From sequence record NC_025447.1: a stretch of DNA of 64,000 nucleotides; one strand, written 5' to 3'. This document shows positions 1,944-43,809 of this stretch, one piece after another (within the stretch, counting starts at the first letter, position 1; each line of letters opens with the position of its first letter). Below the pieces are notes generated by a model. It searched no databases, was not told where the DNA came from, and worked only from the letters and a program-made list of their open reading frames with translations. The translations under genes were made by a program, and so were the position numbers. Source of the DNA: Escherichia phage 121Q.

Positions 1944-3006
<1,063 letters not shown>

Positions 3007-3022
3007 AATATAGACTTAAAAA

Positions 3023-5183
<2,161 letters not shown>

Positions 5184-41490: not shown

Positions 41491-41580
<90 letters not shown>

Positions 41581-41584
41581 ATAT

Positions 41585-41680
<96 letters not shown>

Positions 41681-41689
41681 CTAAAAACC

Positions 41690-41854
41690 ATGACGCATGA
41701 AGAATGGATGAATGATATTAATTTTAGATATTCGGGTATCGGTAGTTGGCGAAAATATCATTGGGAAATTATTTCAGACCCAGCAGAATACGATAAACTT
41801 ATAAACCATGAAGTATATCCGTGGTTCTTTATTGAAATAATGGTACGAATATGA
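41690..41854 (+). CDS. MTHEEW-family small protein
   Basis: MTHEEWMNDINFRYSGIGSW...; 54 aa. Confidence 0.5.
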   Translation: MTHEEWMNDINFRYSGIGSWRKYHWEIISDPAEYDKLINHEVYPWFFIEIMVRI

Positions 41855-42011
41855 CGCATGAAGAATGGATGAATGACATTAATTTTAGATATTCGGGTAT
41901 CGGTAAATGGCTAAAGTATCATTGGGAATTCATTTCAGAGCCACATATGTATGATAAACTTATCAACGATCCAGCATATGAAATGTACTTAATTGAACTA
42001 CTGGTACGAAT

Positions 42012-42015
<4 letters not shown>
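41851..42015 (+). CDS. MTHEEW-family small protein
   Basis: MTHEEWMNDINFRYSGIGKW...; near-duplicate of 41690 copy; ATGA overlap. Confidence 0.5.
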
Positions 42016-42177
<162 letters not shown>

Positions 42178-42656: not shown

Positions 42657-42694
<38 letters not shown>

Positions 42695-42699
42695 GAATT

Positions 42700-43050
42700 C
42701 CACAATCAGACGTATATGGTGTAAGCTACGTCGATGCAATCCAGAACAAGATCTCTGGTACTCTAGGAAGTGGTGAATGTTAACCTAGACGGGTTTGATA
42801 ATTGGACGATAGGCAATTATTACTTGACTAGCAGGTTGAAACTAGAGGTGACAGTCCTTCACCAAACTGGAAAACCGGATGGACTTTTATTTAAAAGGGT
42901 AAGGCGTGGAAATATGTTTACAGAAGTTGCTTTTAGTAGCCTGTACGCCCCACGACAAGGTAGCCGAAAGGTAAGTTAAAACGGGTGGTTATAAAGCTGA
43001 ATTAACAGCGGCGTTTAAAAGCGTCACCATCCATTTTTTTAATTAAAGTT
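42700..43050 (+). ncRNA. candidate structured non-coding RNA downstream of early promoter
   Basis: About 350 nt between a consensus promoter and the next RBS with no convincing ORF, locally GC-richer, several hairpins including GGTGACAGTCCTTCACC and a GAAA-loop stem. Confidence 0.3.
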
Positions 43051-43056
43051 GGCGAT

Positions 43057-43809
<753 letters not shown>

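Follow-up and report, generated by a model that had tools for sequence, protein, structure and literature searches.

The genome of Escherichia phage 121Q (sequence record NC_025447.1) contains, between an early promoter and a cluster of transfer RNA (tRNA) genes, a region of about 350 nucleotides (nt) that very probably consists of genes for structured non-coding RNAs (ncRNAs). The region lies at positions 42,700 to 43,050 of the 64,000-nt stretch analyzed here, which we refer to as the window. At a probability of roughly 0.7, the explanation that best accounts for all observations jointly is that the region holds two independent ncRNA genes, co-transcribed in this phage: module A, a stable RNA of the type found in tRNA arrays, which would act in trans, and module B, which resembles a bacterial small RNA (sRNA). 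The observed part of this explanation comprises sequence conservation, covariation, the lack of a conserved open reading frame (ORF), a promoter, and the modularity of the region among related phages. A preliminary description of this DNA, made from the sequence alone, had proposed one candidate ncRNA downstream of the promoter; its non-coding and structured nature was borne out, but in place of a single RNA we find two separable modules and a terminator-like element.

Distribution of modules A and B

The two modules were delimited by the pattern of BLAST matches to 50,697 phage records, those to module A spanning ∼42696–42883. Module A (Table 1) is highly similar to sequences in the T4-like Bragavirus phages Proteus PM2 (92.5% identity) and Pm5461 (∼92%), in Morganella Mm5 (91%), and in T5-like Novosibvirus Proteus phages and Shigella SdyM_006 (86%), and it is also present in RaK2 and K64-1 (Alcyoneusvirus). 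More divergent copies occur in a single phi92-like phage, Klebsiella KP13-16 (Stephanstirmvirinae, ∼70% identity), and, as a 65-nt core with 82–85% identity, in T4-like phages of Aeromonas, including 65, avDM6, CC2 and AS-zj. Divergent copies used as queries added ∼20 further Aeromonas phages and no new lineage. The identity of module A between the window and PM2 compares with only ∼77% for the tRNA genes of the same two phages, and its loops and junctions are more strongly conserved than the neighboring tRNAs.

Copies were sought beyond phage isolates as well. BLAST detected none in E. coli genomes or plasmids, strict motif scans detected none in 100,044 bacterial species genomes (one genome per species), and scans of IMG/VR returned only isolates already known. 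A loose motif scan of metagenomes yielded 120 loci, all of them chance matches (top score 18 bits), and our literature search found no description of this RNA. Judged by these comparisons, module A appears to be a member of a phage-restricted RNA family that is new to Rfam and associated with tRNA arrays.

Module B (∼42897–43040, ∼140 nt) is far less widespread: outside Asteriusvirus it was found only in the Alcyoneusvirus phages RaK2 and K64-1, and its first ∼54 nt also in a few Kuravirus podophages.

Natural variants separate the two modules. EJP2 carries module A without B, a tRNA-Ser starting 14 nt later, while JNE01 carries module B without A, right behind a promoter of its own (TTGACT...TAAAAT); in RaK2 and K64-1 a promoter (TTGAAC...TATAAT) stands between A and B. 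Only the first ∼36 nt of module A are left in phAPEC6, fused to the next ORF, and in G17, Sharanji and two other phages the BLAST match is similarly confined to the first 42 nt of the query. Module A is also absent from sister phages with intact tRNA genes. Because variants with A alone or B alone exist, the modules are independent; because variants lack A, B or both, the cassette that they form is accessory within the genus.

Table 1. Features of the RNA cassette and its promoter (window coordinates; paired strands are separated by a slash).
Feature	Coordinates	Strand	Evidence or remarks
Sigma-70-type early promoter, TTGACT-17-TGaTATAAT	42666..42694	+	11/12 consensus match; TG extended −10
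Module A, structured RNA of ∼190 nt	42695..42886	+	Covariance model R1, 215 bits; covariation; no Rfam match
Candidate pseudoknot, 5′ strand CCAC; partner GUGG at 42770–42773 in H3 loop	42700..42703	+	Covariation in three lineages
H1, AUC(A)GACGUA / UACGUCGAU, loop UAUGGUGUAAGC	42705..42735	+	Three unrelated stem sequences pair across lineages
H2, CCAG / CUGG	42741..42758	+	Third pair A-U, G-C or C-G by lineage
H3, UCUAGG / CCUAGA, 16-nt loop with pseudoknot 3′ strand	42762..42789	+	5/6 pairs changed on both sides
69-amino-acid ORF, GTG start	42770..42979	+	Judged spurious
H4, GAUAAUUG / CAAUUAUU, loop GACGAUAGG	42797..42821	+	4/8 pairs changed on both sides
H5, CUAG / CUAG, loop CAGGUUGAAA	42828..42845	+	Variants CUGG/CCAG and CAAG/CUUG
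H6, GGUGA / UCACC, 7-nt loop	42847..42863	+	Pair 164–174 is G-C, A-U or U-A
Conserved 3′ tail of module A, AAACUGGAAAACCGGAUGGACUU	42864..42886	+	GAUGG nearly invariant
Module B 5′ domain (B1), extended irregular hairpin, closing stem GGCGUGG / CCACGAC	42897..42962	+	RNAalifold; compensatory pairs versus Kuravirus XT18
GCC-GAAA-GGU mini-hairpin	42963..42972	+	RNAalifold
Module B 3′ element, stem GGGUGGU / ACCAUCC closing two small hairpins, then A + T7	42983..43040	+	RNAalifold

Fold and covariation of module A

Compensatory changes were obvious in a first alignment of nine copies of module A. A covariance model (R1), built from a hand-assigned structure, recovers all 17 copies loaded, with scores of 110–218 bits, and finds a single copy in the window. 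Pairing statistics were taken from a model-based alignment of 16 distinct sequences, in which standard pairs fill 87.9% of the pair cells, as opposed to 24–41% when the 3′ partners are slid by 1–3 columns. Both sides have changed in 21 of the 40 modeled pairs, compared with 2–5 after sliding and 10.2±1.9 when columns were shuffled (each of 500 shuffles fell short of the observed number), and G-U pairs at several positions agree with transcription from the + strand. Comparative alignment, one of the checks proposed in the preliminary description, has thus uncovered covariation.

The predicted fold comprises six supported hairpins (H1–H6, Table 1) and a candidate pseudoknot. Every cell of H3, H5 and H6 is paired, and H5 falls within the most conserved segment of the module (UGACnnGCAG...GAGGU). 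The stem of H1 exists in three versions (GACGUA/UACGUC, AGAUUGUGUA/UACAUAAUCU and GGGAUA/UAUCCC), while the core of its loop is conserved as GGYGU, or as GACGU in Ceceduovirus phages. H1 and H2 score lower in the model-based alignment because the 5′ halves of the Aeromonas and KP13-16 copies are misaligned there; when 5′ halves were folded separately, the same two hairpins formed in 17 of 17 copies. In a curated segmentation, H1–H3 pair fully in ten lineages despite unrelated stems, a result that leans towards the model, as the segments were hand-picked to pair. A proposed seventh hairpin (42867–42878) is weakly supported, with zero compensatory changes and 75% of its cells paired, and a terminal stem uniting the 5′ and 3′ ends of module A is absent from the alignment-based structures. 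In contrast to the diverged stems, several unpaired segments are invariant: UGACnnGCAG, GAGGU, CCUU, GACGAUA and GAUGG.

In the pseudoknot, the 5′ tail would pair with the 5′ part of the H3 loop; enterobacterial phages have CCAC:GUGG, KP13-16 has CCUC(A):(U)GAGG and the Aeromonas phages have GCAC:GUGC, so that two of four positions have changed on both sides. We call it a candidate only, since runs of four base pairs (bp) are common by chance within one sequence.

Several other interactions were considered and discarded. A long-range UCCA:UGGA pairing proposed by RNAalifold competes with the covarying H2; pairing of the junction CGGGnUUG with CAAAC does not covary in RaK2, Mm5 or SdyM_006; a kissing interaction between the loops of H4 and H6 (GGAC:GUCC) is altered on one side only in PM2, a T5-like phage and KP13-16; and an alternative pairing of GGUGA in the H3 loop with UCACC of H6 is contradicted by the T5-like variant. 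Short GACUA and GCAGG strings recall group I introns, a likeness that was dropped given intact flanking tRNAs and no Rfam match.

The H1 loop (42716–42724) can also be read as a mini-ORF of three codons, AUG GUG UAA in the window, AUG GUG UAG in a T5-like Proteus phage and CUG GCG UGA in KP13-16; it is absent from the Aeromonas copies and is probably a coincidence.

Coding potential

The preliminary description found no convincing ORF behind the promoter, and its assessment stands. The sole sizeable ORF of the region, which could encode 69 amino acids (aa; Table 1), is broken in most homologs: when every module A homolog was translated from the GTG position, in-frame stops or frameshifts hit the frame in 12 of the 16 other copies (PM2, Pm5461, SdyM_006, Mm5, RaK2, K64-1 and all six from Aeromonas), and most indels in this part of the homologs have lengths not divisible by three. 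In module B, four of the five related copies also interrupt the ORF (RaK2, K64-1 and JNE01 through an indel of 2 nt, XT18 through a TAA), and no frame is open across the module in all copies. The ORF product has no Pfam match and a weak PHROG match (E=0.008) to a family of unknown function, which covers the module B part; we take this family to consist of ORFs miscalled over this RNA. Codon-like variation at third positions, which the preliminary description regarded as the mark of a real protein gene, amounts to a slight excess (28 of 39, versus 21 and 19 at the other two positions) in a frame that most copies break.

Setting of module A among tRNA genes

The 501 bases around the cassette match Escherichia phage SP27 at 99% and PBECO4 at 98.6% identity; both are Asteriusvirus jumbo phages of ∼350 kb. 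ARAGORN identifies six tRNA genes in the surrounding stretch, all on the + strand. The consensus early promoter noted in the preliminary description matches at 11 of 12 positions and has the extended −10; an identical promoter is found at 43425–43453, upstream of a tRNA-Ser, and EJP2 shows the same arrangement of promoter and RNA as the window. The promoter at 42666–42694 would drive both modules in the window phage. Two further points of that description, a locally raised GC content (0.42 at 42700–42999, versus 0.27–0.31 in the flanks; tRNA stretches reach 0.43–0.485) and a GAAA-loop stem (CCGAAAGG, found as GCC-GAAA-GGT at 42963–42972), also hold.

In every non-jumbo lineage, module A is unannotated and lies on the tRNA strand, in most lineages within a gap of a tRNA array. 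Its modeled start falls 0–3 nt past the CCA end of the upstream tRNA (nine loci, four lineages), which is a tRNA-Gly in PM2 and SdyM_006, a tRNA-Leu in the T5-like Proteus phage and KP13-16, and a tRNA-Pro in avDM6, ZPAH1, Asswx_1, CC2 and AP1. The next tRNA follows after 4–14 nt at five loci (Mm5, PM2, SdyM_006, the T5-like phage and EJP2) and after 60–90 nt in KP13-16 and the Aeromonas phages. As the flanking tRNAs vary by lineage, module A is not bound to one particular tRNA.

In KP13-16 (extract 1618–1680) and avDM6 (extract 1582–1667), the 60–90 nt between module A and the next tRNA are themselves conserved and ORF-free; the KP13-16 stretch closes with a T-arm-like GAGUUCGAAUCUC plus ACCA and is possibly a tRNA fragment. 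The GenBank record of Morganella vB_Mm5 annotates tRNA genes on the strand opposite to that called by ARAGORN, all of whose calls share the strand of module A.

Module B and the terminator-like element

RNAalifold, applied to five copies of module B, pairs 42903–42909 with 42950–42956 to close the B1 hairpin, in which three compensatory pairs appeared when the copy of Kuravirus XT18 was added to the alignment. The 7-bp stem of the 3′ element joins 42983–42989 to 43026–43032 and forms a three-way junction with the two small hairpins, two pairs of which compensate relative to RaK2. This predicted structure is likely to be an intrinsic terminator. With few sequences and 2–3 compensatory pairs, the sequence evidence for module B is weaker than that for module A.

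The branched 3′ element recurs, with the consensus GGRUGRUUAUAAAKCUGAAUURACAG...AUCC followed by a U-rich run, at 42983–43040 of the window and at three sites in RaK2 (extract 2946–3000, ∼3330–3380 and 4598–4655), one RaK2 copy immediately following a tRNA-Ser. Rather than terminating strictly, the element may act as a leaky terminator or stabilize RNA ends.

The Kuravirus XT18 relative of B1 lies in a GC-rich, ORF-free gap of 790 nt (extract 1014–1802) that has no Rfam match; behind the B1-like hairpin (1502–1560) comes a tRNA-like gene with ∼90% identity to loci of N4-like phages that are unannotated or labeled ‘tRNA-Undet’. In the window, the 90-nt spacer between tRNA-Met and tRNA-Asn (43638–43727) can form a four-way junction, in which an outer stem (UUGCAC/GUGCAA) surrounds three hairpins, including CUACC-CGAAA-GGUAG and CUUG-AAUUAA-CAAG. 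Conservation of this spacer is 100% within Asteriusvirus, 87–89% in Alcyoneusvirus phages and 84% in one phage of Erwinia, and two of its pairs compensate relative to RaK2. Two of its sub-motifs, the GAAA hairpin and the AAUUAA loop, also occur in the 3′ half of module B, and the spacer may represent a third small RNA or else a tRNA-like element.

Comparison with known RNAs

Rfam 15 was searched with the region (381 nt, E up to 10), its surroundings and four divergent homologs. No family, including tRNA, transfer-messenger RNA (tmRNA), 6S, ribonuclease (RNase) P, group I intron, ribozymes, GOLLD, ROOL and YrlA, reached its gathering threshold on module A or B, and the top score within the 381 nt was 12.5 bits, a chance level; the Rfam scan suggested in the preliminary description thus matched neither A nor B to a family.

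The best functional analogy for module A is that with T4 species 1 and 2 RNAs, which are co-transcribed and processed together with tRNAs and for which, to our knowledge, no function has been assigned in decades. In the T4 annotation their genes, rnaC and rnaD, stand at the end of the tRNA cluster. Like module A, they specify small ORF-free RNAs, are encoded on the same strand as the tRNA genes and lie inside a phage tRNA cluster or at its end. However, they are shorter (139 and 119 nt versus ∼190 nt) and share no sequence or structure similarity with module A, which also lacks the tRNA-like T-arm in which rnaC ends. Run unfiltered on the T4 tRNA region, R1 finds nothing at rnaC or rnaD (extract 3909–4172) and at most 8 bits elsewhere. 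The analogy to T4 stable RNAs drawn in the preliminary description therefore holds for the tRNA-cluster context, but not as homology.

Other RNAs associated with tRNAs offer more distant parallels. GOLLD and ROOL are reported to adjoin tRNA genes often in phages and prophages (10.1101/2024.12.08.627333). They resemble module A as tRNA-adjacent structured RNAs of unknown function, but their size is several times greater, they belong to other lineages of bacteria, and their Rfam models give no match. YrlA, a bacterial Y RNA-like RNA, is likewise an ncRNA tied to tRNA biology with copies in phages; its matches, however, are weak (22–26 bits, cut-off 69) and lie on tRNA sequences outside A and B, and module A does not have a stem joining its 5′ and 3′ termini. 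A CsrA sponge of the CsrB/RsmZ type was considered and rejected, as the 4–6 GGA per copy equal the expectation from dinucleotide shuffles.

Features that module B has in common with free-standing bacterial sRNAs are a promoter of its own (in RaK2 and JNE01), a hairpin domain at the 5′ end, A/U-rich linkers that are single-stranded, and, at the 3′ end, a stem with a T-run behind it. The module differs from them in that this last stem closes a three-way junction, not a simple hairpin, and in that its 5′ domain is also found in Kuravirus, beside a tRNA-like gene.

Other features near the cassette

Right behind the tRNA-Ser at 41491–41580, the Rfam tRNA model scores 32.6 bits (cut-off 29) at 41585–41663, where ARAGORN makes no call; this may be a divergent or decaying seventh tRNA. 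The tRNA-Ser that ARAGORN places at 43464–43555 has an unusual anticodon, ACT; EJP2 and JNE01 give the same call. Just upstream of the cassette, 41690–42176 holds three tandem paralogous ORFs of 54 aa, each starting MTHEEWM, with head-to-tail overlaps.

Discussion

We propose that the early promoter of the window phage transcribes modules A and B together, most transcripts ending at 43040. Where module A lies in a tRNA array, the host's tRNA-maturing nucleases would excise it from the precursor: RNase P would cut at the next tRNA, and 3′ maturation of the upstream tRNA would free the other end. We consider tRNA-type processing somewhat more probable than its opposite, because the boundaries of the module lie 0–3 nt after a CCA at nine loci and 4–14 nt before the next tRNA at five. 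A compact fold would then make module A stable, so that it builds up like T4 species 1 and 2. The invariance of its unpaired segments between variable flanks, in phages whose hosts are all Enterobacterales or Aeromonas, suggests that module A may act in trans, through these segments, on a component conserved in such hosts. It could thus be an accessory factor for host takeover or counter-defense that travels with phage tRNA genes, a role that we put forward tentatively. Module B would yield an RNA of ∼140 nt made up of its 5′ hairpin, the GAAA mini-hairpin and the probable terminator, a layout typical of a free-standing bacterial sRNA.

Several observations weigh against this proposal. Very high identity between unrelated phages could stem from recent transfer, and not from selection alone. 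The pseudoknot amounts to 4 bp supported in three lineages, a run that 9–90% of loop shuffles also reach, and a transcription start 7–8 nt past the −10 hexamer would clip its 5′ strand in the window phage. The preliminary description had pointed to stable-looking hairpins, of which the GAAA hairpin is present, but their stability does not exceed chance: the minimum free energy of the single sequence is unremarkable against dinucleotide shuffles (z −0.68 for 42697–42886 and −1.48 for 42896–43038). It is covariation and conservation across phage families, not hairpin stability, that mark the region as non-coding and structured. At the 3′ end, a simple consensus terminator scan made no call at 42983–43040, and a RaK2 relative of the 3′ element sits immediately upstream of module A, so that this element may not terminate efficiently. 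Finally, we found no complementarity or motif enrichment pointing to a binding partner, and our literature search found no transcriptome for these phages.

The chief alternative is a role of module A exclusively in cis, in the processing or transcription of the tRNA operon, either as a structured spacer that guides processing of the tRNA precursor or stabilizes it, or as a promoter-proximal RNA resembling that of HK022 put, which modifies the transcribing polymerase. Module A does always lie in or beside tRNA transcription units, begins at the predicted transcription start in the window phage and EJP2, and is separated from the downstream gene and tRNAs by a terminator-like element. We nevertheless consider this unlikely: a spacer would have no need of loops and junctions conserved above the neighboring tRNAs, the flanking tRNAs differ between lineages, sister phages manage intact tRNA genes without module A, and RNase P cleavage in tRNA arrays would detach the RNA from the polymerase. 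Its spread, with 86–92% identity across phage families and sharp boundaries, might also be explained if module A were catalytic or mobile (a small element capable of self-cleavage or self-splicing, or an RNA belonging to a homing cassette), and the homing endonuclease gene in the tRNA arrays of SdyM_006 and T4, the invariant junctions and the compact fold with its candidate pseudoknot are compatible with this. However, up to an E of 10 there is no match to any family of ribozymes or introns, the intact flanking tRNAs leave no exons to join, and neither an endonuclease nor any other protein is consistently adjacent, making such an element very improbable.

Still less credible is a functionless remnant, such as degenerate tRNA genes or recombination scars. 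Although the cassette is dispensable, being wholly or partly lost in JNE01, EJP2 and phAPEC6, and tRNA-like fragments lie nearby in KP13-16 and XT18, decay does not account for six helices kept by compensatory changes among lineages at only ∼70% identity, for conservation above that of functional tRNAs, or for the lack of any tRNA score from Rfam or ARAGORN. We give least credence of all to a small protein, encoded by the 69-aa ORF or another short one. The ORF is present, several GenBank records carry a ‘hypothetical protein’ there, and the weak PHROG match and slightly more variable third codon positions could be read in its favor; against these stand the stops, frameshifts and 2-nt indels that break the frame in both modules, its division between EJP2 and JNE01, each of which holds only half, the lack of a Pfam match, and the compensatory nature of substitutions within stems.

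As a kind, the ORF-free stable RNA in a phage tRNA cluster is already known from T4 species 1 and 2. The family of module A is unrelated, differs in architecture and is distributed unusually widely across phage families: a second RNA family in the same niche, common to jumbo, T4-like, T5-like and phi92-like phages of enteric bacteria and Aeromonas. Many GenBank records show either spurious ‘hypothetical proteins’ over this RNA or a blank gap. Because natural variants without A, B or both exist within one genus, function is directly testable.

Phage tRNA clusters are now viewed as tools against host defenses that deplete or cut tRNAs. More speculatively than the accessory role suggested above, module A might define a new class of phage RNA effector acting in trans: a compact, pseudoknotted RNA of ∼190 nt, carried in tRNA arrays and passed horizontally among phage families that are unrelated, which would bind or inactivate a conserved host component; this would be, for example, a tRNA- or translation-directed nuclease or another defense protein. 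If so, module A would be an RNA counterpart of protein anti-defense factors.
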